Assembly (NCBI GenBank): GCA_964558905.1
Contig: CAZLGP010000143.1
Location: 47,070 to 111,069, forward strand
Length of the DNA stretch: 64,000 nucleotides
Direction of reading: 5' to 3'
From: an uncultured Thermoanaerobaculia bacterium
GTDB taxonomy: Bacteria; Acidobacteriota; Thermoanaerobaculia; Gp7-AA8
The notes beneath the pieces are model-generated. The model did not search any database and had not been told where the DNA came from. It saw nothing but the letters and a program-made list of their open reading frames with translations. How positions within the stretch are numbered: the stretch's first letter is position 1; each line of letters starts with the position of its first letter. Of the stretch, positions 3,052 through 58,632 are shown one piece after another. The position numbers and the translations under genes are program-made.

Positions 3052-5534
3052 TCGAGCTCCAGAAGACACTGCGGGTCCACGCCCGACTGGAAGCGCAGCA
3101 GGTATCCGCGGCCGTTGTCCGCGGCGGTGAGGACGAACTTGTCGCTCATCCGCAACCCGATGAGCTCCGCCTCGATGCCGTCCAGCCGTTTCCAGAGCTT
3201 CGGAAGGAGGCAGTAGCGTTGGTCGGGCGGCAGTCCCTGCTGGGCCTCGAAGCGGAACGCCAAGCTGAAGCCGCTACGTTGATGAAGGAAGCCGAGCAGC
3301 TCGCGCGCGATGCGCTCCTGCTGCGGTCCTTTGCCCGGTTGCGCGAGCTCCTGCTGAAACGGATCCTTGTAGAGGCGGCTCAAGCGCTCGAGGAATGCAA
3401 GCGGCACGAGGAACGAGCGGCTGTAGCGGTCATCCCACTCGCCGAAAGGCGCGGCTTCCGCTTGTGTGGACCGATAGCGTTCCGGCCCAGGCGGATTGCT
3501 GCGGAGCATGGCCTCGAAGTCCTCGCCGCGTTCCATCGAGTAGCGGATCCCGGTGTCGTTGCGATCGAGCCGTCCCTCCTCGGGGCGCAGAGCCTCACCC
3601 GTGAAGCCGTGCAGGCGCAGAAACTCGCGAAGCTGATTGCTGAGCCAGAGCATCTCCCGCAACCGTTCGCGCAGGCGGCCGAGCACGCGTCCGAGCTCGC
3701 GCGACACTTCGCCGCGCACGCTCTGATGGATATTGAAGAGAAGGCGCTCGATCAGCTGGTCGACCGGCGCGCGCAACGCTCCGCCCTCGGCGATCCCGCT
3801 GCGAAGACGATCGACGAATCGTCCGCGATCGTCATCGCTGTAGAAGCGTCTCGCGCGATCGATTCGGCCAGCGATGCCTCGATGAAACGCCAGTGCGCCC
3901 GCCGCCCACGAGCCTGCGAAAAGCACGGCACCGACGACCAATCCGTTGTTGACCCGCTGGAGAGCGGCGTGCGCACGGTTGAGGAGGAAGCGCGTGACAT
4001 CCGGCGGCGGAATGTCGCTGAGGAGCTCGGTGATGAGCGGCGTCAGTCCCGCGGCGAGCACCACGCCGAGAAGCGGCCACCACCAGCGCAGACCTTCGAC
4101 ATCGACGCGCTCATGCTGAAATCGTCCGTACGTCTGATGGAGGTTTTCGATCTCGCGCAGCAGCTCCTCGGCCCGGTTGACAGGCGGCGGTTCGATGCTC
4201 TGCGGCGGAACCAGCCGCTTCAGTAGCGCCTCGAGCTCGGCGATGACCGCGCCGACGCCTACGGGCTCGCGGGAATCCTGCAGATCCGCGTCGATGCCGG
4301 CGCGCACGGCCGTCGGAAGATCAACGAGATGATTGCGCGCGATGTCGGACATGAGCGTGTGCGCGGCCGCAGAGACCCGAGCCTCGACGCGACGAAGGGC
4401 TTTCGCGTAGCGCTCGCGAACGCGCTCGGGCCAGTCCGGCATGTCGATCGGCAGCGCCGTCAGTTCGCGCTCGAGCGCCGTGAAATCTTCTTCGGCCTCA
4501 GCGCGCAGCAGATCGCCGTCAATCAGCTCATCGAGTGCTTCGGGCGCGAACGGCGCCAGCCGCTCGCGGAGACGTTTCGGCTCGCCGTCACTGCGGAGGT
4601 GTCCCGCGCCTGCGAGATATTCGAGCCAGCCGATGCCGAAGCGCGCCGCGGCGAGCGAAGCGAGGAGTCCGGCGCTGCGCTCCACGAGGCGGATGCCGAA
4701 CGTCGCGAGCGCGGAGTCGTGAGCGCCCGCGGGCTGATAGAGCCGTCGCAGGTCGCCGTCGCGCATTCCCTCGAACAGCAGGAATTCGAGAAAGAGACTG
4801 ATCTCGTCGATGCGATGAGACGGCTCCCGAATGCCGTCGTCGGTTCGGCCGTCGACGAGATAGAACCGTCCGAACGCGGGTTTCCCCATGTTCCGGCGCC
4901 GCTGCCAGAAATCGACCGACGAATGCAGCGCCTTGCGGACTGTGCGCGCGTTCTCGGCGCGGTCCCAGTAGTTCTCGAAGTCGAACAGAGCGATGAAGTT
5001 CAACGCCTCGGCGCCCTGGACGGCGCGTCGAAGGTTGGCGTTGTTCGCAAGCATCTCGACTCCGGGCAACAGCACGCGGTCGAGCGTGCCGATGACTTCG
5101 CGGCTCGTCGGCCGGGCGAGGACGATGACGTCGAGTCCGAGCGGCAGAGCGTCGTTGCGGCCTGCGCGTCCCGCGGCGGAGAGTAGAGTCTCCGCCGACT
5201 CGACGAGCGCCTGCGCGAGACCGTCCGCACCGGAGTCGCTGCTCACCTCACGAATCTGGCGATAGAGGTCGCGCATCATCTCCAACGCGCTTCCTTCGCG
5301 CGCATCGATGCGCTCGAGCTCGTCTGCCGTTGCGAGCGGATCGGGCAGCCAGAGGAGCGCGAGGTCCTGGAGATGGCGCTCGCTCGGCCCGCCGCCGCCG
5401 CGAGGCTCTTCCCACCGCAGCACGCCGCGCGGCGCGGTGCTCCCGAGCAGCCGGCGCAGGACGTCGAGACCGAAGGCCCCGAAGCCAACGAGGATCGTCG
5501 CGCGATGCGCGCTGATGTCGTCAGTGGTAGTCAT
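3048..5534 (-). CDS. Degenerate tubulin/FtsZ-like domain protein with helical region and transmembrane hairpin
   Basis: N-terminal TILVGFGAFGLDVL loop but no GGTGSG signature. Hydrophobic pair WWWPLLGVVLAAGLTPLI / GLVVGAVLFAGSWAAGALAF. ATGA overlaps at both ends. Start at 5534 preferred over the ORF-track start 6179. Confidence 0.75.
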   Translation of the reverse strand: MTTTDDISAHRATILVGFGAFGLDVLRRLLGSTAPRGVLRWEEPRGGGGPSERHLQDLALLWLPDPLATADELERIDAREGSALEMMRDLYRQIREVSSDSGADGLAQALVESAETLLSAAGRAGRNDALPLGLDVIVLARPTSREVIGTLDRVLLPGVEMLANNANLRRAVQGAEALNFIALFDFENYWDRAENARTVRKALHSSVDFWQRRRNMGKPAFGRFYLVDGRTDDGIREPSHRIDEISLFLEFLLFEGMRDGDLRRLYQPAGAHDSALATFGIRLVERSAGLLASLAAARFGIGWLEYLAGAGHLRSDGEPKRLRERLAPFAPEALDELIDGDLLRAEAEEDFTALERELTALPIDMPDWPERVRERYAKALRRVEARVSAAAHTLMSDIARNHLVDLPTAVRAGIDADLQDSREPVGVGAVIAELEALLKRLVPPQSIEPPPVNRAEELLREIENLHQTYGRFQHERVDVEGLRWWWPLLGVVLAAGLTPLITELLSDIPPPDVTRFLLNRAHAALQRVNNGLVVGAVLFAGSWAAGALAFHRGIAGRIDRARRFYSDDDRGRFVDRLRSGIAEGGALRAPVDQLIERLLFNIHQSVRGEVSRELGRVLGRLRERLREMLWLSNQLREFLRLHGFTGEALRPEEGRLDRNDTGIRYSMERGEDFEAMLRSNPPGPERYRSTQAEAAPFGEWDDRYSRSFLVPLAFLERLSRLYKDPFQQELAQPGKGPQQERIARELLGFLHQRSGFSLAFRFEAQQGLPPDQRYCLLPKLWKRLDGIEAELIGLRMSDKFVLTAADNGRGYLLRFQSGVDPQCLLELE

Positions 5535-8500
5535 GACACGTCGACGTCGAGGTGGCCGAAGAGGCTGTCCTCGGAGGCCGCGGCTTTCGGCAACCAATCG
5601 ATCTGCCGTCGGATCTCCTCCCGCACCGCCTCCAGGATGGGCCCGTCGAGAGCATCTTCCTGAGTCATGCGGCCATCGCTCTGCCGAAGCTCCATCTCGG
5701 TCAGACGCTTTCCGATGCGACCGAGAAGCTCTTCGCGGCGGGTCAGTTCGTCTTCCGGCGTGACTCCCTCGTGCGCGCCGCGGAGGTCCTTCTCGAGCTG
5801 CACCTGTACGTTCGGCAGCCGATGGTACTCGCCGAGCCGGTACAGAGCGGTCGCTAGGCTGTTGCCGAGGATGACCGGCTTGTCCTGACCGCTGCGCTGC
5901 CACGAGATGCCCTGGCCGGGAGTATGCGTGATGACGCGCGTCCCCAAACCATCCGCGAGCATGCTCAGCGCCCAACCCACGGCGATCTCGGAACGTTTGG
6001 GATTGAGGTTGGGGAGCGACTCCTCCCAATGAAAGTCCGTGTGCAGGTGATACGACCGGTTCTTGTCGGCCGCTGTATGCAGATACGCGTCCTCGATCTC
6101 GCCGACGACCGCGTCGAGGTAGTAGAGCGGAATCGGCAGATCGACGTCGTGCACGATGATGAGCCGCGGGTCGTGCCACGTGGAATCCTTGATCTGCCGT
6201 CCGCCGGTGGATAGCACGTCCTTCAGGCGGTCGACGAATTTTTTCGAGGCTTGCGCGCGGCCTGCTTCACCGACGCCCACGATCAGTTGCCGCGTGTGGT
6301 TCGTCTTCGCGCCGTCGTCGAGCACCTTCGTGTCGGCAGCGCTGACGCGTGCGAGCACGCCGCACATCTGCGCGAGCGCGCGGAACTTCTTCTCGCGGTA
6401 GTCGTCGATCTCCGCTTCGGTGACGGACTGGCCGGGTAGCTTGTCCGACCCGACGACGAGCGTGGCCTCGAGCTCGAGTCCGCGCACGAGATCGAGCCCG
6501 GGCTGCCCGACCTGGCCGAAGATCGTCGGACGCATGCGTGCACGTCCAAGCTCGCGCAGGGCGCGCTGCAGATCGGAAACCGTCTGGTCGATCGACTTCT
6601 CCGCCACGGTACCGTCGGCGCGTACGACCGGTTTGAGCTCCTGCGTGATCGTCGACGCGAGCAGCTGGCGGTCGAACGTCGAGATGTATCGCCCGTCGTC
6701 GAGGAAGAGCGCGCGGTAGACGCGATCCCAGATGCGCTGCCGCGGCTCGTCGAGCGTCTCGAACACCTCGACGCGCAGCGCGAGCGGCGGGACGAGCGCC
6801 GTCTCGCCGCGGCGCAGGCGCTCGGCTTCGCGCTCGAGATCCTGTACCAGCGAGTCCATGCGCGTGGCGAGACGCGCGTACTGGCGCGAGCGGCGCTGCA
6901 GGAATTCGAGCAGGGCGCGCAACTGCCGCAGGCGGATCTCGGCGTCGAACATCGCGCGGGCCGCACTCGCGATCTCGCGGACGACGGCCTGGGCCTCGTC
7001 GCGTGCGGCGAGGAAGTCCTGATCTCCTCGGAACAGGCCGCGTTTCTCGGCCGCGGCTTTGAGGGCTTCGAAGATCTCACGCTCCACGCGTTCTCGCACC
7101 TTCGGATTGCTGACGTCGCGGCTTTTCGCCTTCTCGAGTTGCTGCTGCGCGTCCGGGATCAGCGTGCGCTCGCACCGCTCGAGGAGGCGGACGACGAGAT
7201 AGCGCTCCGCGATCGGATCGAGCTTCAGGTCGCCGATGACCTCGCCTTCCGCTGCCGCGGCTTCGAGGCCGCGGACGTTCTCATCGACGATGAGCCGCGC
7301 TCCACGGATGTCTTCGAGGAGGCGGTTCACGAGCTCGATGTACTGGTTGACGCCTTCGCGGTGGAAGACGAACGCGCGCTCCTTGATGGAGACGCGGTTG
7401 AGCAGGTCACGGCGCGCTTCTTCGAGCTTGCGCTCGATGAGGCGGGACTGCGACTCGGCGTGAACCGGCTCGCCTTTGTCGTTGACGCCGGTCTGTTCAC
7501 CCTCGTCGATCGACTCGACGAGGCGGTACCAGTAGCCGTCGAGCATGTCCTGCGTGGCGTCCTGCCGCGCCATTTCCTGGACCGAAGCGACGAACGATTG
7601 GTTGATGGCGCGCTCGCGCCGGTCGTCGGCCATGTTGAGGAACTTCGGGTCGGAGTAATTGATGGCGAGCTTGGCGAGCGCGCGTGCGCGGTCGTCGGCG
7701 GGATTGTTCGGATCGACGCTGAAGGTGATCTGGCTGCGAATGGCCTGCGCGGCGAAGCGCGTCGAAACGTATTCGAGCAGCTCGTGGCCGGGCAGCACCA
7801 TCGCCGCGGCGCCGAACGCGCCGAAGTTCTTCGTATAACCCTGGCCGACGTTGCGGAGCTCGCCCGGGAAGTGTGTCAGCTCGACGAGGTTCTTCTCGTA
7901 GTTGTCGATCTCACTGGCCATGTTGTCGATGATCGGCGTGAAGATCTGCAGGAACGCCGCATCGGCGACGGCCGCCGCGGCGTCCGGCAGAGCGAGGTGC
8001 GACGGACGATCGAAAATGAACGAGAGGAAGCTCGGCCTCGTGCGCACCTTCTGGACGGCGCGATTGTTCTCGTCGCGGCAATAAACGAAGTCGGTGTACT
8101 TCCGACCGGCCTGCTGAACCTTCGGATATCCAAGCTTCGTGAGGTATTCGATCTCCTTGAGCGCCGCGTACGTGTTCGCGTGGATGTCGGGATGGAGCTC
8201 CGGCCCCACCTTGTCGAGCATCAGCGTCGACAAGAGGAGATTCGAGATGACGCGCGGCTGCAGGTTCTGCTCGCGAAGGATGGCGTCGATCAAGTATGCC
8301 ATCGACAAATAGTTGCCTGAGCCTGTGCCTCCGGCGAGGGTGCAGAAGAGATAGACGTTGTACTTCTCGGCGGCGCGCCAGGTGATCCCGGGCCGCAAGC
8401 TCTCGGCGATGAGCTCCTTGAGCCGCTGCTTGATTTCGAGCGACTGGATGAAGAAGCCGAGCCGTGACTCAACGCGGATCTGTCCCGCGCCGGGTGTTTT

Positions 8501-8824
8501 CCCGGATCGAGGCTCGTATCCGGGGTCGAGCCACTGCAGCGCCTGCGGATCTTTCGAACGCCGGAAGTGCTCGATCGCCTTCGCTTTGTCGAAGACGGAG
8601 AGGTTCAGGCGATTGCCTTGCGGGATGTTGCGCAGCCGGTGCTGATCGAGATCGTTCGTGTCGATCGACACGAAGCTCGTCAGCGGCCGGAGTTGGCTCT
8701 CCCAGTTCGGCAGGACGGCGGCGCGGCCGGCGATCCGGTCGACGATCCGCGAACCCGTCCCGCCGAGGCCGATGAAAAGGGTAGGGGCGATGGATCCCTG
8801 GCCGCTTCGATACTCTTCGCTCAT
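5531..8824 (-). CDS. Tubulin/FtsZ-like GTPase (Tubulin_2/FtsZl1-type) with long helical/coiled-coil C-terminus
   Basis: FIGLGGTG, SIDTN, GAGQIR, TLAGGTGSG and ANTYAALKE motifs; AGGAG ribosome-binding site before ATG 8824. Confidence 0.88.
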   Translation of the reverse strand: MSEEYRSGQGSIAPTLFIGLGGTGSRIVDRIAGRAAVLPNWESQLRPLTSFVSIDTNDLDQHRLRNIPQGNRLNLSVFDKAKAIEHFRRSKDPQALQWLDPGYEPRSGKTPGAGQIRVESRLGFFIQSLEIKQRLKELIAESLRPGITWRAAEKYNVYLFCTLAGGTGSGNYLSMAYLIDAILREQNLQPRVISNLLLSTLMLDKVGPELHPDIHANTYAALKEIEYLTKLGYPKVQQAGRKYTDFVYCRDENNRAVQKVRTRPSFLSFIFDRPSHLALPDAAAAVADAAFLQIFTPIIDNMASEIDNYEKNLVELTHFPGELRNVGQGYTKNFGAFGAAAMVLPGHELLEYVSTRFAAQAIRSQITFSVDPNNPADDRARALAKLAINYSDPKFLNMADDRRERAINQSFVASVQEMARQDATQDMLDGYWYRLVESIDEGEQTGVNDKGEPVHAESQSRLIERKLEEARRDLLNRVSIKERAFVFHREGVNQYIELVNRLLEDIRGARLIVDENVRGLEAAAAEGEVIGDLKLDPIAERYLVVRLLERCERTLIPDAQQQLEKAKSRDVSNPKVRERVEREIFEALKAAAEKRGLFRGDQDFLAARDEAQAVVREIASAARAMFDAEIRLRQLRALLEFLQRRSRQYARLATRMDSLVQDLEREAERLRRGETALVPPLALRVEVFETLDEPRQRIWDRVYRALFLDDGRYISTFDRQLLASTITQELKPVVRADGTVAEKSIDQTVSDLQRALRELGRARMRPTIFGQVGQPGLDLVRGLELEATLVVGSDKLPGQSVTEAEIDDYREKKFRALAQMCGVLARVSAADTKVLDDGAKTNHTRQLIVGVGEAGRAQASKKFVDRLKDVLSTGGRQIKDSTWHDPRLIIVHDVDLPIPLYYLDAVVGEIEDAYLHTAADKNRSYHLHTDFHWEESLPNLNPKRSEIAVGWALSMLADGLGTRVITHTPGQGISWQRSGQDKPVILGNSLATALYRLGEYHRLPNVQVQLEKDLRGAHEGVTPEDELTRREELLGRIGKRLTEMELRQSDGRMTQEDALDGPILEAVREEIRRQIDWLPKAAASEDSLFGHLDVDVS

Positions 8825-8849
8825 TGCGTTCTCCTGCACCGTTCGCGCT

Positions 8850-11225
8850 TCATGCGTTTCTCAGTTCGAAAAAGAGGCTGCCCGGGTCGTTGCGATAGAG
8901 ATCGCCGAACCGCACGACCGATTCATTCAGGGGGATCTGTTCCCATTCGCCGTCGCTCCGTCGTCGCCAGACGACCGAGCCGCCGGCCGGTGTAATGCGC
9001 ACCTGCCTGCGGTCGGCGCGCAATCGTGCGATGGCATTGCGCGGCCGGCCCGAGAGCCGGAAGTCGCCGCAGATGAAGATCCGCGCGTCGCGATAGAACC
9101 CGCTCGACGACCCGCGTTGTCCTCGAATGGGATGGAAGAAGCCCTCAGCGATGTCTTCCTCCGGCGAGAGGACGACGCCGAGCCGCGGCGAGAATCGCGA
9201 CGGCGACCAGAAGCCGTGGATCACGATCGCCGCGACGATCGTGCCGACTGCCGCCGCGAGTACCGGCCACCAGCAGTGCAGCCACGAGTCGGGGACGATC
9301 TCGGCGACGATGGGAATCGTCGTGCGAATAGGCTGGCCGTCCGGTCCGGTGGCAGCGATCACGATCTCGAACGAATGCGCCGCGGGATTTCCCTCCGGAC
9401 AGGCGCCGACGCGCAGCCGGACCGGCCATGTGCGCCGTCCGTTCTGCGAAAGCTTCAACGTGAGCGGCTGCCGGCCGAGCGCGGCCCATCCGTTGCCGGC
9501 ATCGAGCTCGAGGATCGAGCGCGTGCGGTCGAACTGGGTGCTGACGCTCAGTTCGAACTCTCCCCGCACCTCGGCGGAGGAAAGATCGAGCTGCCCCATG
9601 CCAGTGGAGTTGCTCGCGAGACTGCCGAACCGGATCGGCTCGGAGCGCTGGAAGCGCAGCCGCCCGAGCACGACGAGCGGCGCATTGACCGATGTCGCGG
9701 GGCCACCGCCGACGGGCTTGTAATCGAGATGAATCGTTCCGGTGTCCGGCGGCGTCCACCTGCGTGCGAAGACGCGATCGCCGGCCTGCCGGTCGCCTTG
9801 TTTCCCGTCGTCGCGAAGGTCGATCACCTCGCGGCCGGTTAGGACGTCGACGCGCTCGGGCGGGCGCAGTGTCTCGGCGGCCGCGCCGACGGGTTTGGCA
9901 GCGACCGCCAGGTCGATCGGACGCCCGACCTCCGCTCGTTGCGGCGTGTGGACCTCCAGGCGCCACGCCGCGTCGACGACGTTCGCGGTCAGACTGGTCC
10001 GGCGGTCGAGAAAGTTGCTTTGGAGATGGACGTTGAGCGTCTGCTCGCCCGAGCGGTCGAATGTTGTGGTCGCCGTGAGGATGCCGTCGCCGGCCTGCCG
10101 GTCGCCATTCGTTCCGTCGTCGCGAAACGCGACTTTGCGTCCGTCGATCTCGAGCTCGGCCTGCAGGCCGGGAATGGCGGCGGTGTCCTTGATCCGCGCG
10201 CCGGTCCGTTCGTCGAACAGCTCCACTTCGATGGGTGCGGCGGTGCCGCGCGGCACGGTCGGCGAGGAGACCAGGCGCAGGCCGACCGCCGAGTCCTGCA
10301 GCAGCATCCATCCCGCGCGGTCGCCGACGCCGACGCCGCGGAACCGCCAGCGCCCAGGCGAGGGCTTTTCCAGACGGACGATTCGATAGCCGCGCAGGAT
10401 TCCGTCAAGCCCGGTCGTGGCGCCGCCGCCCCGGTGGTTCACGTCGATCGCCGCCGCGCTCGGATTTCCTGGCACCGGGGCGATCGCGGTGATCGGCCCG
10501 TCGGCGGCTACGACGAGAAACGCCTCGCTGACATACGGCGCGACCTCGACCGAGACCTCACCCGAAACGCGTCCGGTCTGAACCTGCTTCGCGCCGAGGA
10601 AACGTTGATAGACGAGGGCCACGGCTTCGATCAGCCCCTGGGCGTCGAGAGCGGCGGTTGTGAAGTCGAACGCTGGATTCGCGTCGAATGCGCCGGCGCT
10701 GCCGCCGATGTTGATCGCCGCGACGATGGCGCCGCCGCGTTTGAGCGTGAGCATCTCGTCGGTGAGGACGCTCTCGCATCTTCCCAGGCCGCCGGAGTCC
10801 GCGATGATGAGGAGCATCCGCTGCGTGTCCGGATCCGGCGGCAGCAGCGAGATCGCCGTGCGGATCGGCGCCGCGAAGTACGTGCCGGTGTCGAACGTGA
10901 GCAGGCCGTCCAGCCGGCGCTTGAAGTTGCCACGGTCCCGTGGATCGAGACGCAGAACGAGCGAAGACGAAGCGCGCTGGGAGCAAGCGGAGGAGAACAA
11001 CGATTCCGGCGGCATGCGGATCACCGACAGCTCGTTGCCCGCGTCAACGAGATCGGAGAGGATCTGCGAGAGTTGCATCGTGTACCGCCGCGCGTCCGCC
11101 TGCTGCATCGATCCCGACGTATCGACGACGATCGCCAGGCGGCGATTCGTCGCACCGAGCGCGGATGCAGCCAGCGCGAAGGAGCTCAGCAGCGACAGCA
11201 GGGAAGCCCACGGGCGCCGCATCAC
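8850..11225 (-). CDS. Secreted/membrane vWA-domain protein with two DDG..GD..AGD repeats (choice-of-anchor-X-like), TM helix and cytoplasmic tail
   Basis: Signal peptide; MIDAS DTSGSM...T...D; DDGTNGDRQAGDG and DDGKQGDRQAGDR; TM WWPVLAAAVGTIVAAIVIHGFW; GTGATG start overlapping the upstream stop. Confidence 0.85.
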   Translation of the reverse strand: MMRRPWASLLSLLSSFALAASALGATNRRLAIVVDTSGSMQQADARRYTMQLSQILSDLVDAGNELSVIRMPPESLFSSACSQRASSSLVLRLDPRDRGNFKRRLDGLLTFDTGTYFAAPIRTAISLLPPDPDTQRMLLIIADSGGLGRCESVLTDEMLTLKRGGAIVAAINIGGSAGAFDANPAFDFTTAALDAQGLIEAVALVYQRFLGAKQVQTGRVSGEVSVEVAPYVSEAFLVVAADGPITAIAPVPGNPSAAAIDVNHRGGGATTGLDGILRGYRIVRLEKPSPGRWRFRGVGVGDRAGWMLLQDSAVGLRLVSSPTVPRGTAAPIEVELFDERTGARIKDTAAIPGLQAELEIDGRKVAFRDDGTNGDRQAGDGILTATTTFDRSGEQTLNVHLQSNFLDRRTSLTANVVDAAWRLEVHTPQRAEVGRPIDLAVAAKPVGAAAETLRPPERVDVLTGREVIDLRDDGKQGDRQAGDRVFARRWTPPDTGTIHLDYKPVGGGPATSVNAPLVVLGRLRFQRSEPIRFGSLASNSTGMGQLDLSSAEVRGEFELSVSTQFDRTRSILELDAGNGWAALGRQPLTLKLSQNGRRTWPVRLRVGACPEGNPAAHSFEIVIAATGPDGQPIRTTIPIVAEIVPDSWLHCWWPVLAAAVGTIVAAIVIHGFWSPSRFSPRLGVVLSPEEDIAEGFFHPIRGQRGSSSGFYRDARIFICGDFRLSGRPRNAIARLRADRRQVRITPAGGSVVWRRRSDGEWEQIPLNESVVRFGDLYRNDPGSLFFELRNA

Positions 11226-13480
11226 CGGTACTCCATGCGGAAGAGGAACGAGCCTCGATCGGTGATGAGGCGATAAACGTGGCGGACCGCCAGCGTGACC
11301 AATCCTCGGCGCACCGACGTCGGGTCGTCGTCACGCAGAGCCTCGACGCGTACGCCGCTGGCGGGACGGAACTGGAAGAGCTCCTTGTCCACCGGACGCA
11401 CACGTCCGAGGAGGACGTTCTCGCCAGGCGCGACGACGGAACGCTCGGCGACCCATCCGAGGAGGTTCGCCGTGGATGCCTCGTTTAACGTTCGCCCGGC
11501 AAGATCCGCCGACGATTCTTCGGCCGCGATCGAATAATGGAGATCTCCCGGAATCACCGGCCGGTCGCGCAGATACCAGAGCGGCGCCACGAGACCGAGC
11601 AGCAGCAGCGAGGGGATGAGCATGAAGCGCCAGCGCTCGTACAGCGTCGGCGGCGCCACCGGAATCTTCAGGCGGAACGGCTTGACGACTCCGAACTCGT
11701 CGTATGGATCGTCCATCAGAGTCGTAACGAGCGTCAGGCCAACCGGCCGTGCGGGATTTCCCTCGGACGGCTTCCCCATCTGCACGCAGAGCTTGTGCTG
11801 CGACAGCAATTCTTCCGGCGCGAGCTGGCGTCCTTTGAACCACGCCGAGGGTTGTGTGGCGGGGCTGCCTTCCACTTCGAGCGGAAGGCCGTCGAGCGTG
11901 AACGACGCCTGACGGAGCTCGCGTTGCAGCACGGCCGGATCGCTCACCGAGAGAACGGCGCGAACGGGATACAGCGGCCGCTCAGGATGCGGCAGCCGGC
12001 CGCCGTCGAGCTGAAATACGAACTGCGTGCAGGAATGATCCTGCCGTCCGAGCGCCGTGCTCGACACGGAGGCGGTGCTCGGCAGGGGAGCGATGGAGAC
12101 GGGCGGATGGACTTCGACGCGATGCGCGTACATGCCATCGAGCGAGCCGACGACGGCTTCGCCGCGGCGCACCTCGACTTCGAGGTAGCCGGCGTACATC
12201 GCGCCTGGCTTTTCCGGATCCTCCGGAAACTCGACGTCGACGTCGAAGATCCTTCCCTCCGGTGTCGGAGTGCCTGCGCCGACCGCGGCGTTGCGATCGC
12301 TTCGCCACGCGTAGGACGCGTTGCCGGTGCCGCTGGCGACACGCTCCCCGCACATGCGAAACGACAGGTCGACCGCTCCTGGGTCTCCCTGTGCTCCGCT
12401 GGCGGCGCGAACGCGAATCCGCAACGGAAACGGGTTGCCGGCCAGAGCGCGTTCCGTCTGCTGGAGCGGCGGCACGGGGAGGACGTCGACGGCGAGCCGC
12501 GTCGGCCGCAGCACCGCCACGGTGCCGGCGGCGGCATCAGACGCGAATCCGTAGCGGCCGGTATTCGGTTGGAGCACCCAGGTCAGCGAGTAGCTGCCGC
12601 CCGGGACGGCGGCGTTCAACACGCCGTCCGGGTTTTGCACGGTGCCGCCCGGTGGCGCCGACAACACGAGGCTCGGCGGCGTCTGCGCCCGCGGCGTGAG
12701 CACTGCCACGGAGACGCGCTCCGGCGTGGTCTGCGCTTCGAGATCGAGGTCCGCCGTTCCGGGGATGCGATGCGCGGTGTCGGGCGAGAAGCCGAAGCTG
12801 CGCGAGAAGATCTCCAGCATCTGCGCGAGGAGCTGCGTGCCGTTCGGATCCACCAGCGATGCGCCGAGAGACGTGCCCTGCGGCGACGTCAACATGCGCG
12901 TGAAGAAGTCCTGGTTCTTCGCCGCCTCGGCGCCGAAGGCGAGCACGTAGAGGCGGATCCCATGTTGCTCGATGCGCGGCGCGAGCTCGTCTCGAATGCG
13001 CTGCAACTCCGCTTCGCGTGTCGAACGCTCGGGAACGCCATCGGTGACCAGCACGATCGCGCGGATGTCGTGCACTCCGCCCTTCTTCTGCTCCAGATCG
13101 CCGAGGGCGGCGGCGATGCCGGGATAGAAGTAGGTCATGCGGGCCTGGTACGGGAGCGCCTGCACGGCCTGCACGAAATCGTTGCGGTGCCCCGTCTGCG
13201 CAGCGATCCGGCGCTGCCGGCTCACCGGCGGTGGCGCGGCCGGATCGAGCCATCGCCAGTCGAGATCGAACGGGATGACGTCGAACGTATCGCCGCGCGT
13301 CGTGTTCGGCGCAGCGAGGTCGTGCAGCAGGAGCGTCGACAGGATCGCCATCCGTCCGGGATCGTTGGCCTTCATCGACGCCGAGAGATCGAGCACGACC
13401 CGCACGTGGACCTGTCGTGCCCAGAGCGGCGCGGCGAGCATCGCGAACGCGAACGACAGCGCGATCAGCGCACGCTTCAT
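11222..13480 (-). CDS. Secreted/membrane vWA-domain protein with TM helix and cytoplasmic tail
   Basis: Signal peptide MKRALIALSFAFAMLAAPLWA; MIDAS DLSASM...MTYF...LVTDG; TM FMLIPSLLLLGLVAPLWY; ATGA overlap at 13477-13480. Confidence 0.85.
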   Translation of the reverse strand: MKRALIALSFAFAMLAAPLWARQVHVRVVLDLSASMKANDPGRMAILSTLLLHDLAAPNTTRGDTFDVIPFDLDWRWLDPAAPPPVSRQRRIAAQTGHRNDFVQAVQALPYQARMTYFYPGIAAALGDLEQKKGGVHDIRAIVLVTDGVPERSTREAELQRIRDELAPRIEQHGIRLYVLAFGAEAAKNQDFFTRMLTSPQGTSLGASLVDPNGTQLLAQMLEIFSRSFGFSPDTAHRIPGTADLDLEAQTTPERVSVAVLTPRAQTPPSLVLSAPPGGTVQNPDGVLNAAVPGGSYSLTWVLQPNTGRYGFASDAAAGTVAVLRPTRLAVDVLPVPPLQQTERALAGNPFPLRIRVRAASGAQGDPGAVDLSFRMCGERVASGTGNASYAWRSDRNAAVGAGTPTPEGRIFDVDVEFPEDPEKPGAMYAGYLEVEVRRGEAVVGSLDGMYAHRVEVHPPVSIAPLPSTASVSSTALGRQDHSCTQFVFQLDGGRLPHPERPLYPVRAVLSVSDPAVLQRELRQASFTLDGLPLEVEGSPATQPSAWFKGRQLAPEELLSQHKLCVQMGKPSEGNPARPVGLTLVTTLMDDPYDEFGVVKPFRLKIPVAPPTLYERWRFMLIPSLLLLGLVAPLWYLRDRPVIPGDLHYSIAAEESSADLAGRTLNEASTANLLGWVAERSVVAPGENVLLGRVRPVDKELFQFRPASGVRVEALRDDDPTSVRRGLVTLAVRHVYRLITDRGSFLFRMEYR

Positions 13481-15624
13481 GTGCGGCCCCTCGTGGCAAC
13501 GCGGAAATACGGACCGCGTTCGCCGATGCGGTACACGTCGCCCGCGTGCGCACGCCGTCCCTGCTCCGGCACGGTCTCCCAATCGCTGTCGAGCGTCTCC
13601 CGATACAGCGACATGCCGCCGCCGGGGTTTACGTGCGTGCCGGAGCGTTCGGCGCGCAGCGACGCGACCGCGCCCTGTGGACTGCCGGAGAGACGAAAGT
13701 CGGGATGGAGAAACGCCCGTGCGTCGCGGTAGAAGCCGATGCCCACGCCTTTCCACTGCCGGACGGGCTGCGCGGTCTGCTCTTCGAGCTCGTCGCGCTC
13801 GGGCACGTACACGACGGCCAGGCCGCCCTGGAAGCGCTGCGGCACGACGTAGCCGCCGATGATGAAGAGCAGCAGGAGGATGCCGAGGATCGTGAGGATC
13901 AGCCAACCCCAGCGCTCCCAGAACGACAGCCCGTGCACCTGCCATCGCAGACGAATCGGAACCGCGTGCTCCTTTCGGTCGCTGCCCGCAACGCGCAACT
14001 CGAGCCACGGTTCGCCGGATGCGGTGGACGACGGCGCGAGCCGCGTCGTCGAAAGACAGACTTCGAGACGATCGCCGGCGTTCGCGCTGACGGCAGCGCT
14101 GCCAGGCGTCAATTTGCCCGCGGGCAAACGAACCTCGAGCGCGTGGCCCGACGGAAGACTCCGGAGACGCCGCAATTCGAACGGAACTTCTCCCTGATGT
14201 TCAGCCGTGAAGGCGAGAGGCCGGCAGGCAACGGCTTCGACGCCGATCGTGCCGAGGTCGATGTCGAGCGGCGGGCCGGCGTAGCGGAAGCTTCCCGCGA
14301 CGTTGACGACGACGTCGACAGTGCGGTCGATGAAGGGGCTGCGCACGTGCAGGCGGACCGGCACTTTGCCGGAGCCGCGAAAGGTCACCGCGCCGGTGAA
14401 GCGGCCGTCGCCGGCGGCGGCATCAGAATTTGCTCCCTGATCCGACAAAGTGACGGTCTGTCCCTGCACCTCGGCCGTGAACGTTGCGTCGCGCAGCAGC
14501 TCAGGATCGGTGACGAGATGTCCTTTGCCGGCGCTGATCCCTCCGACCAATCGGACCGGAGTCCCAGCGAGCGCACGCTGCGGTTCGAGCAGCACCGGTG
14601 CGAGCGCCGAGCGCTGCACGACGGCGTAGGCGACGCCGGGGCCGCCTCCCGACGCGCGCACCGTCCAGCGTCCGGCGAGCGGCAGTTCGATGTGGGCGAC
14701 ACGGTAGGCGCCGGCGCCGACCCAGCGATCCGCTGCGTAGTCGGCGCGAACCGGCTGTTGCGGTCCGTCGATGGTGACGTCGCCCAGCGTGTCGTCGCCG
14801 TAGACGACGATCCACGCTTCCTCGACGTGCTGCTTCATCTCGAAGCCCGGCTGGACGGAGACGAGGTTGTCGATTTCGTACGGAGCCTGGACGATGCGCC
14901 GGAACGATCCGGCGAACGCCTTCATGATCTCCGCCGGCGTGGAGACGCGGCGCGGGGTGAGGCCGGCGGCGATTGCGAGGTCCGTGTCGCCGAGGCCGAA
15001 GACGATCGCCTCGACCGCCACGCCCTCGGCCGCGAGCTCGCCGATGGCGTGGCCCACGACGGGGGCACTCTCGGACCGGCCGTCGGAGAGCCAGATGACG
15101 GTGCGCGGAACGCCGGCGGCCCGGGAAGGGTCGTTGCGGTGCTCGTCGAAGATCCCCTGCGCCGCACGGAAGGCGAGGTGGAACATGCTGTTTGTCGAGC
15201 GTTGCTCGAGATGTCCCTCCAGCGACTGCTTGAAGGCCGCGTCGCCGCGCGCGGGACGGGCCAGTGAGCCGAGTTTCTTGCTCCGTGCATCGGCTTCCCA
15301 GTCCGTCGCCGCGTCCACCGTGTGGCATGTGCGCGAGGGATCCTCCGAGCACGGCACGAACGTGCCGGTGGGGCGGCTGGGGATCACGTCCTTGTCGTCG
15401 TCGAGGTCGAGCAGGCGGACGACGGCCAGATCGCCGGGCACGATGTCGGCGAGCAGCTTCGTGACGAGCAGCGACGCGCGCGTCGGGTCCATCCCGTCCT
15501 GGCGCATGCTCGTCGAGGTGTCGACGATGACCACCGCGTCGGCGGTGGTGGGACGCCGGTCTTGGGCGGAGATCGTCGCCGCGAGTCCGATCACTAGCAA
15601 AGCGCGCGCAGCCCTCAGGTTCAT
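13477..15624 (-). CDS. Secreted/membrane vWA-domain protein with anchor-X-like repeat, TM helix and cytoplasmic tail
   Basis: Signal peptide MNLRAARALLVIGLAATISA; MIDAS DTSTSM...WLSDG; DQGANSDAAAGDGRFTG; TM WGWLILTILGILLLLFIIGGY; GAGG before ATG 15624. Confidence 0.85.
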   Translation of the reverse strand: MNLRAARALLVIGLAATISAQDRRPTTADAVVIVDTSTSMRQDGMDPTRASLLVTKLLADIVPGDLAVVRLLDLDDDKDVIPSRPTGTFVPCSEDPSRTCHTVDAATDWEADARSKKLGSLARPARGDAAFKQSLEGHLEQRSTNSMFHLAFRAAQGIFDEHRNDPSRAAGVPRTVIWLSDGRSESAPVVGHAIGELAAEGVAVEAIVFGLGDTDLAIAAGLTPRRVSTPAEIMKAFAGSFRRIVQAPYEIDNLVSVQPGFEMKQHVEEAWIVVYGDDTLGDVTIDGPQQPVRADYAADRWVGAGAYRVAHIELPLAGRWTVRASGGGPGVAYAVVQRSALAPVLLEPQRALAGTPVRLVGGISAGKGHLVTDPELLRDATFTAEVQGQTVTLSDQGANSDAAAGDGRFTGAVTFRGSGKVPVRLHVRSPFIDRTVDVVVNVAGSFRYAGPPLDIDLGTIGVEAVACRPLAFTAEHQGEVPFELRRLRSLPSGHALEVRLPAGKLTPGSAAVSANAGDRLEVCLSTTRLAPSSTASGEPWLELRVAGSDRKEHAVPIRLRWQVHGLSFWERWGWLILTILGILLLLFIIGGYVVPQRFQGGLAVVYVPERDELEEQTAQPVRQWKGVGIGFYRDARAFLHPDFRLSGSPQGAVASLRAERSGTHVNPGGGMSLYRETLDSDWETVPEQGRRAHAGDVYRIGERGPYFRVATRGRT

Positions 15625-56058: not shown

Positions 56059-58632
<2,574 letters not shown>

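Follow-up and report, generated by a model that had tools for sequence, protein, structure and literature searches.

How could proteins displayed outside the cytoplasmic membrane be tied to a tubulin-like GTPase inside the cell? This question is raised by a 64,000-nucleotide stretch of DNA from an uncultured Thermoanaerobaculia bacterium (contig CAZLGP010000143.1; the window, hereafter, means this whole stretch), in which three minus-strand genes, here called g3, g2 and g1, encode membrane proteins with von Willebrand factor A (vWA) heads and are followed by the gene of an FtsZl1 tubulin-like GTPase (5531-8839, minus strand; Tubulin_2, E 4.9e-40). Makarova and Koonin (2010, Biol Direct 5:33, PMC2875224) defined FtsZl1 and described operon-linked vWA proteins with an intact metal ion-dependent adhesion site (MIDAS), and Kaur, Burroughs, Iyer and Aravind (2020, eLife 9:e52696, PMC7159879) placed tubulin and vWA neighbourhoods among the DO-GTPase/GAP1-N2 conflict systems. 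Our literature search found no functional study of Tubulin_2/FtsZl1. In this study, we found a likely element of communication between periplasm and cytoplasm in the C-terminal tails of the three proteins. The tail is an undescribed, very divergent FHA-like domain family of about 120 amino acids (aa) and predicted all-beta structure, and we believe it on balance probable that, in a single subtype of FtsZl1 operon, the tails are the cytoplasmic docking modules of a receptor arm, relaying outside occupancy inward.

The first-pass annotation of this DNA, made from the letters alone, had described three tandem receptors, each with a signal peptide, a vWA MIDAS, one transmembrane helix and a tail of about 110 aa, and the translations agree with it. 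The g3 protein (13477-15624, 715 aa) consists of signal peptide, vWA, choice-of-anchor X, transmembrane helix and type-3 tail; the g2 protein (11222-13480, 752 aa) of signal peptide, vWA, transmembrane helix and type-2 tail; and the g1 protein (8850-11225, 790-791 aa) of signal peptide, vWA, two choice-of-anchor X motifs, stalk, transmembrane helix and type-1 tail, all on the minus strand. A hydropathy scan of each protein gave a signal-peptide-like hydrophobic N-terminal stretch and exactly one internal transmembrane segment. In g3 it covers residues 571-593 (13846-13914, the sole internal window with a Kyte-Doolittle hydropathy >1.6), in g2 residues 617-638 (11567-11632) and in g1 residues 649-672 (9210-9281), where a conserved WLxCWWP motif precedes it. 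The type-3, type-2 and type-1 tails follow at 13480-13845, 11225-11566 and 8853-9209, with lengths of 122, 114 and 119 aa, respectively. Given the signal peptides and the single helices, the tails would lie in the cytoplasm.

The tails of g1 and g3 are paralogues. BLASTP aligned them with 44% identity over 105 aa (E 2e-22), against 25% identity over 491 aa (E 1e-18) for the ectodomains, so that the annotation was right to say that these tails align despite diverged ectodomains. The two motifs that it had quoted are present as written, GFYRDARIFICGDFRLSGRPRNAIARLRADR at g1 residues 709-739 (window 9009-9101) and GFYRDARAFLHPDFRLSGSPQGAVASLRAER at g3 residues 630-660 (window 13645-13737). In hhalign, the type-1 and type-3 families of transmembrane helix plus tail matched over 149 columns with a probability of 99.9% (E 1.4e-36). 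The tail of the middle gene had been called more divergent, and indeed BLASTP-level pairwise comparison found no significant similarity of the g2 tail to the g1 or g3 tails. When type 2 was compared with types 1 and 3 by hhalign, only the transmembrane and juxtamembrane part aligned, with a probability of 3-36%; because the alignment is limited to that region, we do not claim homology of the g2 tail from sequence.

When the tail region alone was used as the query against a collection of 5.8 billion proteins, the g1 tail had 111 relatives with at least 49% tail identity, the g3 tail had 107, and the g2 tail had only 19, all of about 750 aa. Among 14-17 orthologues, the tail was the most conserved region of both g1 (mean identity of 64.5%, compared with 57.8% for the vWA domain and 43.0% for the stalk) and g3 (66.5%, compared with 61.3% for the head). 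In tail numbering, the invariant or nearly invariant residues are P6, R8, G36, G40-F41-Y42-R43, A45, D52, R54, A62, L66, A68, R85, W92, G105 and F117; D44 also belongs to the conserved stretch G40-F41-Y42-R43-D44-A45, and S56 is conserved less strictly.

What kind of domain is this tail? The isolated tails had no match in Pfam at E <= 10, an NCBIfam scan of the full-length proteins gave nothing in the tail region, and the tail profile found no real match among the sequences of the PDB. The only hit in the Pfam and NCBIfam scans of the tails, to DUF5122 (E 0.0065), was rejected as chance, as was a profile match to a de novo protein among the PDB sequences. An AlphaFold2 model of the g1 tail, built from 49 aligned tails of types 1 and 3, was all-beta with nine strands (predicted local distance difference test, pLDDT, 88.9; predicted template-modelling score, pTM, 0.82). 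When this model was compared with the PDB by Foldseek, the first ~33 matches were all FHA domains, with query-normalised TM-scores of 0.43-0.57, target-normalised TM-scores of up to 0.68 and probabilities of about 0.9-1.0; after them came SMAD MH2 and IRF domains, which share this fold class. The FHA matches included APLF (5w7w, 5e50), Rv0020c/FhaA (2lc1), Ki67 (1r21), OdhI (4qcj), PNKP (2brf), ArnA (5a8i), kinesin FHA domains and MDC1. The model of the g2 tail, built from 24 sequences, had a pLDDT of 80.1, a pTM of 0.73 and a predicted strand order like that of g1; its only Foldseek matches with a TM-score >= 0.4, at a root-mean-square deviation of about 5 Å, were FHA domains (MU2, CT664, APLF, KIF13A and MEK1), with E-values of 0.18-1. 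The models thus support a predicted FHA fold, well for types 1 and 3 and moderately for type 2. The tail is not a member of the FHA family at the level of sequence, as far as profile comparison can tell. The suggestion in the annotation that the tail is FHA-like holds for the predicted fold, and it fails for the sequence profile and for most of the residues that bind phosphothreonine.

Could the tails then be classical phosphothreonine readers? In that case, a component of the core or a partner of the tails would be the substrate of a Ser/Thr kinase whose gene lies elsewhere. The predicted fold would suit such a function, the genome contains 48 Pkinase matches and 18 canonical FHA domains, and many FtsZl1 operons contain kinases according to Makarova and Koonin (PMC2875224). 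In a loose alignment that has no statistical support, the GFYR of the tail, with its near-invariant Arg, stands opposite the GR loop of FHA domains, and RLSG, which frequently provides a Ser, stands opposite SxxH. However, the alignment of the tails holds no conserved equivalents of the His and the Asn-Gly of the canonical FHA loops, so most canonical phosphothreonine-binding residues are absent from the tails, and the tails were detected neither by the Pfam FHA model nor by hhalign. The operon also contains no kinase or phosphatase, the annotated related loci showed neither, and on the contig no Pkinase gene lies within 30 kb of the operon. We consider phosphothreonine reading very unlikely. 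The most conserved motif of the tail lies in, or just after, the loop of the model with the lowest confidence (residues 31-45), and we speculated that this part of the model may resemble a ligand-binding loop.

If the tails are docking modules, what do they carry on the outer side of the membrane? The transmembrane helix and the tail were found together on at least eight types of head. These include beta-propellers of the SGL, NHL and Vgb-lyase types, IgGFc-binding and choice-of-anchor L heads and an Invasin-D3-like region, and NIDO and He_PIG heads are carried with type-3 tails. In carriers of the g1 type, the common region runs from about residue 513 and comprises about 130 residues of membrane-proximal ectodomain, the transmembrane helix and the tail. 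In two independent clusters, P0325 and P0349, the protein consists of a signal peptide, a CHAT protease, the transmembrane helix and a type-1-like tail, and the gene of P0325 (L054:1276-4449) adjoins a caspase gene. The smallest mobile unit is thus the helix plus the tail, and it anchors both binding heads and the protease type of the system itself. The exported CHAT fusions suggest that the CHAT and caspase proteases of the operon work on the outer side of the cytoplasmic membrane and that this tail can tether them there. Additional carriers lie within the operon in L005, L015, L022 and L025 and beside a conserved four-gene cassette, which converges on the end of the operon, in L001, L002 and L021; rarely they stand alone. 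Among its 19 relatives, the type-2 tail was not seen on any head other than that of g2. At L003:889-1494 and L004:356-880, an intact carrier with an NHL/SGL propeller is preceded, about 2 kb upstream, by what is left of a frameshifted type-1 tail; this carrier occurs on 46 metagenome contigs, which are short and show no tubulin genes.

A swappable module of this kind could also be a mere membrane anchor or sorting tag at the C-terminus of choice-of-anchor-type surface proteins, with neither signalling nor docking to tubulin. The heads do bear domains of the choice-of-anchor type (X or L), a name that refers to their occurrence with alternative C-terminal anchors, the exported heads are unrelated to each other (one of them is an enzyme), and the module always sits at the extreme C-terminus. 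The tail domain ends no more than 11 residues from the C-terminus in 337 of 340 proteins, and the remainder consists of g3-g2 fusions and a single probable frameshift. A confidently folded domain of 120 aa that is more conserved than the heads goes far beyond the needs of an anchor, however, and an anchor would explain neither the three specialised paralogous types in fixed order nor the near-exclusive link of the module to one type of operon, in which no sortase-like gene was seen. We regard the anchor explanation as highly improbable. As to fused forms, P0277 (1340 aa) and P0129 (1112 aa), both metagenomic, hold g3 and g2 in one frame; the fusion may be genuine or may stem from an error at the ATGA overlap. 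A candidate "Rosetta stone" fusion of g1 and tubulin, P0048, was rejected, being a single sequence with a truncated tail and probably a frameshift.

Is the tail a generic domain, or does it belong to the tubulin-like operons? A search with a profile of the tail, which the annotation had proposed as a check for generic use, found only 239 clusters at E <= 1e-3 and 162 at E <= 1e-10 among 1.84 billion representative proteins. From species-representative genomes, 23 loci were recovered; their hosts are Acidobacteriota (Thermoanaerobaculia, Holophagales, Bryobacterales and others), Competibacteraceae, Methylococcaceae, Thiodictyon and Thiohalocapsa, together with one Verrucomicrobia contig. Of the 19 informative loci, 17 have an orthologue of the tubulin of the window downstream of their type-1 carrier, and in the apparent orphan L021 the tubulin gene is 23 kb off on the same contig, which brings the linkage to 18 of 19. 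A pseudo-tubulin and a pseudo-helicase come after the tubulin wherever the downstream sequence suffices. In the gammaproteobacterial loci L012, L015 and L026, the type-1 gene and the tubulin gene are set apart by 2-5 kb of extra sequence.

Of 151 genomes sampled evenly from the class, 2 carry the tail and 16 carry Tubulin_2. The two tail-positive genomes are that of the window, which has only two matches to the tail profile, and one of the seven congeners sampled, and the same type of tubulin gene is adjacent in both. The use of the tail as a marker of all tubulin-like operons was therefore rejected, because 14 of the 16 Tubulin_2-positive genomes in this sample lack the tail. These results indicate that the tail is not generic and marks one subtype of the FtsZl1 operon, and that its distribution is patchy, as is typical for accessory systems.

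Why are there three receptors rather than one? The order type 3, type 2, type 1 is fixed in 17 loci across Acidobacteriota and Gammaproteobacteria, and g2 always sits between g3 and g1. In the window, the stop and start codons overlap as ATGA between g3 and g2 and as GTGA between g2 and g1, and the tubulin-like gene begins 10 nt past the stop codon of g1. Because the g1 protein of the public collection has 790 aa, translation of g1 probably begins at the ATG at 11222 and not at the GTG at 11225; either codon overlaps the stop of g2. The three genes are translationally coupled and encode type-I membrane proteins that diverged anciently. Rather than recent tandem duplicates whose heads diverge freely, they are three old orthologous groups in fixed order, with vWA heads that are 54-61% identical on average among orthologues. 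The heads of the core triad are conserved orthologues rather than hypervariable sensors, and the diversity resides in the additional carriers. The idea of variable sensors converging on a common tail is correct in so far as other heads share the module of helix and tail; it does not describe the triad, whose heads are conserved and whose g2 tail has no detectable sequence homology to the others.

This arrangement also fits another explanation, in which the tails would bind only each other. Types 1, 2 and 3 would then form a hetero-oligomeric cytoplasmic base, like the inner ring of a type III secretion system (T3SS), without direct contact to the tubulin core. Such a base would suit three distinct and individually conserved tail types, encoded by coupled genes in constant order and in a ratio of roughly 1:1:1. 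The additional carriers, which have type-1 or type-3 tails and never type 2, would fit exchangeable positions around a fixed core subunit, and an FHA domain associated with the T3SS of Chlamydia (CT664, 3gqs) is among the fold matches of g2. It would leave unexplained that the tails are found almost exclusively next to this subtype of tubulin and that the type-1 gene directly abuts the tubulin gene, and orphan single carriers exist. We consider it unlikely that the tails bind each other and nothing else; mutual binding is compatible with docking to the core and may be part of it.

The heads of the triad all contain the DxSxS metal-site motif, which is also present in 47 of 48 orthologues. In g1 it reads DTSGS (11109-11123), in g2 DLSAS (13376-13390) and in g3 DTSTS (15508-15522), all on the minus strand. 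Against the Pfam vWA models, g1 scored 28.8 bits with VWA_2 (cut-off of 27), and g2 and g3 scored 21.6 and 19.2 bits, respectively, which is under the cut-off. The DDG..GD..AGDG repeats that had been noticed in two of the genes belong to the choice-of-anchor X domain of NCBIfam, NF041940 (a 37-residue profile with a cut-off of 25), with two copies in g1 and one in g3. The g1 protein scored 64.1 bits with two stretches (10026-10130 and ~9777-9818), the g3 protein scored 26.6 bits (14350-14454), and the NCBIfam scan gave no match to this model in g2. The conserved stalk of g1 lies at ~9282-9689.

We favour the explanation that g3, g2 and g1 together span the envelope as the receptor arm of a single subtype of FtsZl1 operon. 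On the outer side of the cytoplasmic membrane, each receptor would display a vWA head with its MIDAS and a stalk, and on the inner side it would end in a domain of predicted FHA fold. The tails would be docking modules that tie the display on the outside to a membrane-associated cytoplasmic core, made up of the tubulin, a membrane-anchored pseudo-tubulin, the pseudo-helicase and a GTPase. The loops with GFYRDA and DFRLSG would form a non-canonical and probably phospho-independent surface for binding peptides, and the binding of ligands or clustering outside could in this way be passed on to the polymer-forming core and to the associated proteases. The direction of signalling is presumably from outside to inside.

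Several observations weigh against the docking explanation. The g2 tail is not demonstrably homologous to the tails of g1 and g3, and with a mean orthologue identity of 43.1%, against 54.1% for its head, it is the faster-evolving part of its protein. The conserved heads of the triad suit a fixed structural role as well as a sensor role. The support for the fold has weak points, as the Foldseek E-values of the g1 model range from 8.4e-3 to 0.3, with none <1e-3, at TM-scores of about 0.5; the FHA model PF00498 finds 18 domains in the genome and none of the tails, and hhalign of the tail profiles with 16 canonical FHA domains of the same genome gave probabilities <2%. A complete Thiohalocapsa genome has a true orphan carrier with an IgGFc-binding head, and the only tubulin-like gene there is 30% identical and 1 Mb away; solo carriers are also found on short metagenome contigs. 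For docking itself and for the identity of the partner, the evidence is the adjacency of the genes.

How does this system compare with those already described? The tail shares with FHA domains (PF00498), whose fold is an eleven-stranded beta-sandwich, a predicted beta-sandwich of ~100-120 aa with the same strand order. It differs in that GR is replaced by G-F-Y-R, that the His and the NG are missing and that it forms the very C-terminal end of a type-I membrane protein. The FHA-fold domains of T3SS inner rings (YscD/EscD/PrgH type) would be a close parallel, as there, too, a single-pass protein uses a cytoplasmic FHA fold to join a periplasmic part to a cytoplasmic machine. These domains have likewise lost the phosphothreonine-binding residues. 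In the inner-ring proteins, however, the FHA domain is N-terminal, the periplasmic part has ring-building motifs and not vWA domains, and there is no tubulin-like partner.

Integrins offer an analogy only. They resemble the triad in having a MIDAS-containing head of vWA type, beta-sandwich legs, a single transmembrane helix and a tail beside a cytoskeletal-family protein; their tails are short peptides and not folded FHA-like domains, and no homology is claimed beyond the vWA fold. We speculated on an integrin-like receptor acting from outside to inside. In this scheme, the capture of ligands by the MIDAS heads or by swapped-in heads (propeller, lectin-like or protease) would cluster the tails, the clustered tails would nucleate or anchor an FtsZl1 polymer at the membrane, and the GTPase/pseudo-helicase core and the exported caspase/CHAT proteases would be licensed as a prokaryotic axis of conflict or envelope surveillance. 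We hold this full scheme to be rather improbable.

With the vWA/FtsZl1 operons of Makarova and Koonin (PMC2875224), the present operon shares Tubulin_2/FtsZl1, membrane-bound or secreted vWA proteins with a MIDAS, an OmpA-like protein and a GTPase. Here, Tubulin_2 lies directly downstream of g1 and vWA domains are present, a neighbour of 502 aa has a weak match of the OmpA/TssL type, and a GTPase, DO-GTPase2 (PF19993), is encoded in the orthologous operon L001, with a homologue in the genome of the window. The tail, the fixed g3-g2-g1 triad and the portable module of transmembrane helix and tail are not described there. With the DO-GTPase/GAP1-N2 systems of Kaur et al. (PMC7159879), the shared components are the DO-GTPase2 in the operon of a relative, the tubulin, the membrane vWA proteins and nearby caspase/CHAT proteases; CHAT-TPR and caspase genes head the operon of the window. 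The tubulin theme of that study is described for Firmicutes and Actinobacteria, with FNIII-repeat and GAP1 components. In the present case, Acidobacteriota and Gammaproteobacteria are the hosts, and a pseudo-tubulin and a pseudo-helicase are the partners; no FHA-like tail, fixed triad or portable module is described there either. The neighbour proteins of 772/789 aa and 536/590 aa have no recorded Pfam match. In PADLOC-DB 2.0, there was no match for g1, g2, g3, the tubulin or the pseudo-tubulin, and the neighbour proteins gave only generic caspase/TPR matches and a weak DruE match.

Several features of the surrounding genome were also recorded. The four genes of the cassette encode proteins of ~567, 393-461, 1075-1322 and 399-482 aa without Pfam matches, and they converge on the end of the tubulin operon. 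The cassette is found in L053 (G000:C143:35000-47300, just upstream of the window) and at L001:1929-9977, L002:909-9803 and L021:434-5415. In relatives it is followed by an additional tail carrier with a non-vWA head, and in the genome of the window it has no such carrier. A second and better-scoring Tubulin_2 gene, without tail carriers, lies on another contig (G000:C60:17938-18906), and a Tubulin_2 fragment with an in-frame TGA lies ~18 kb upstream of the window (G000:C143:28627-29136). The nearest kinase of the contig is a Ser/Thr protein kinase domain in a 931-aa frame on the minus strand (window 57826-58602; G000:C143:104895-105671), ~33 kb from the start of the operon. A canonical FHA domain is encoded outside the window at C143:17287-17478.

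For the biology of this family, the module of helix and tail is the likely communication element of FtsZl1 operons, and its tail is a rare domain of predicted FHA fold that is absent from the databases searched (Pfam, NCBIfam and PADLOC). The tail can serve as a sequence marker with which to find this operon subtype, and it makes the coupling of inside and outside directly testable, and Methylovulum psychrotolerans is a cultured carrier of the tail system. Should docking of the tails to the tubulin core prove true, these proteins would represent a rare case of a bacterial transmembrane receptor coupled to a cytoskeletal-family protein.

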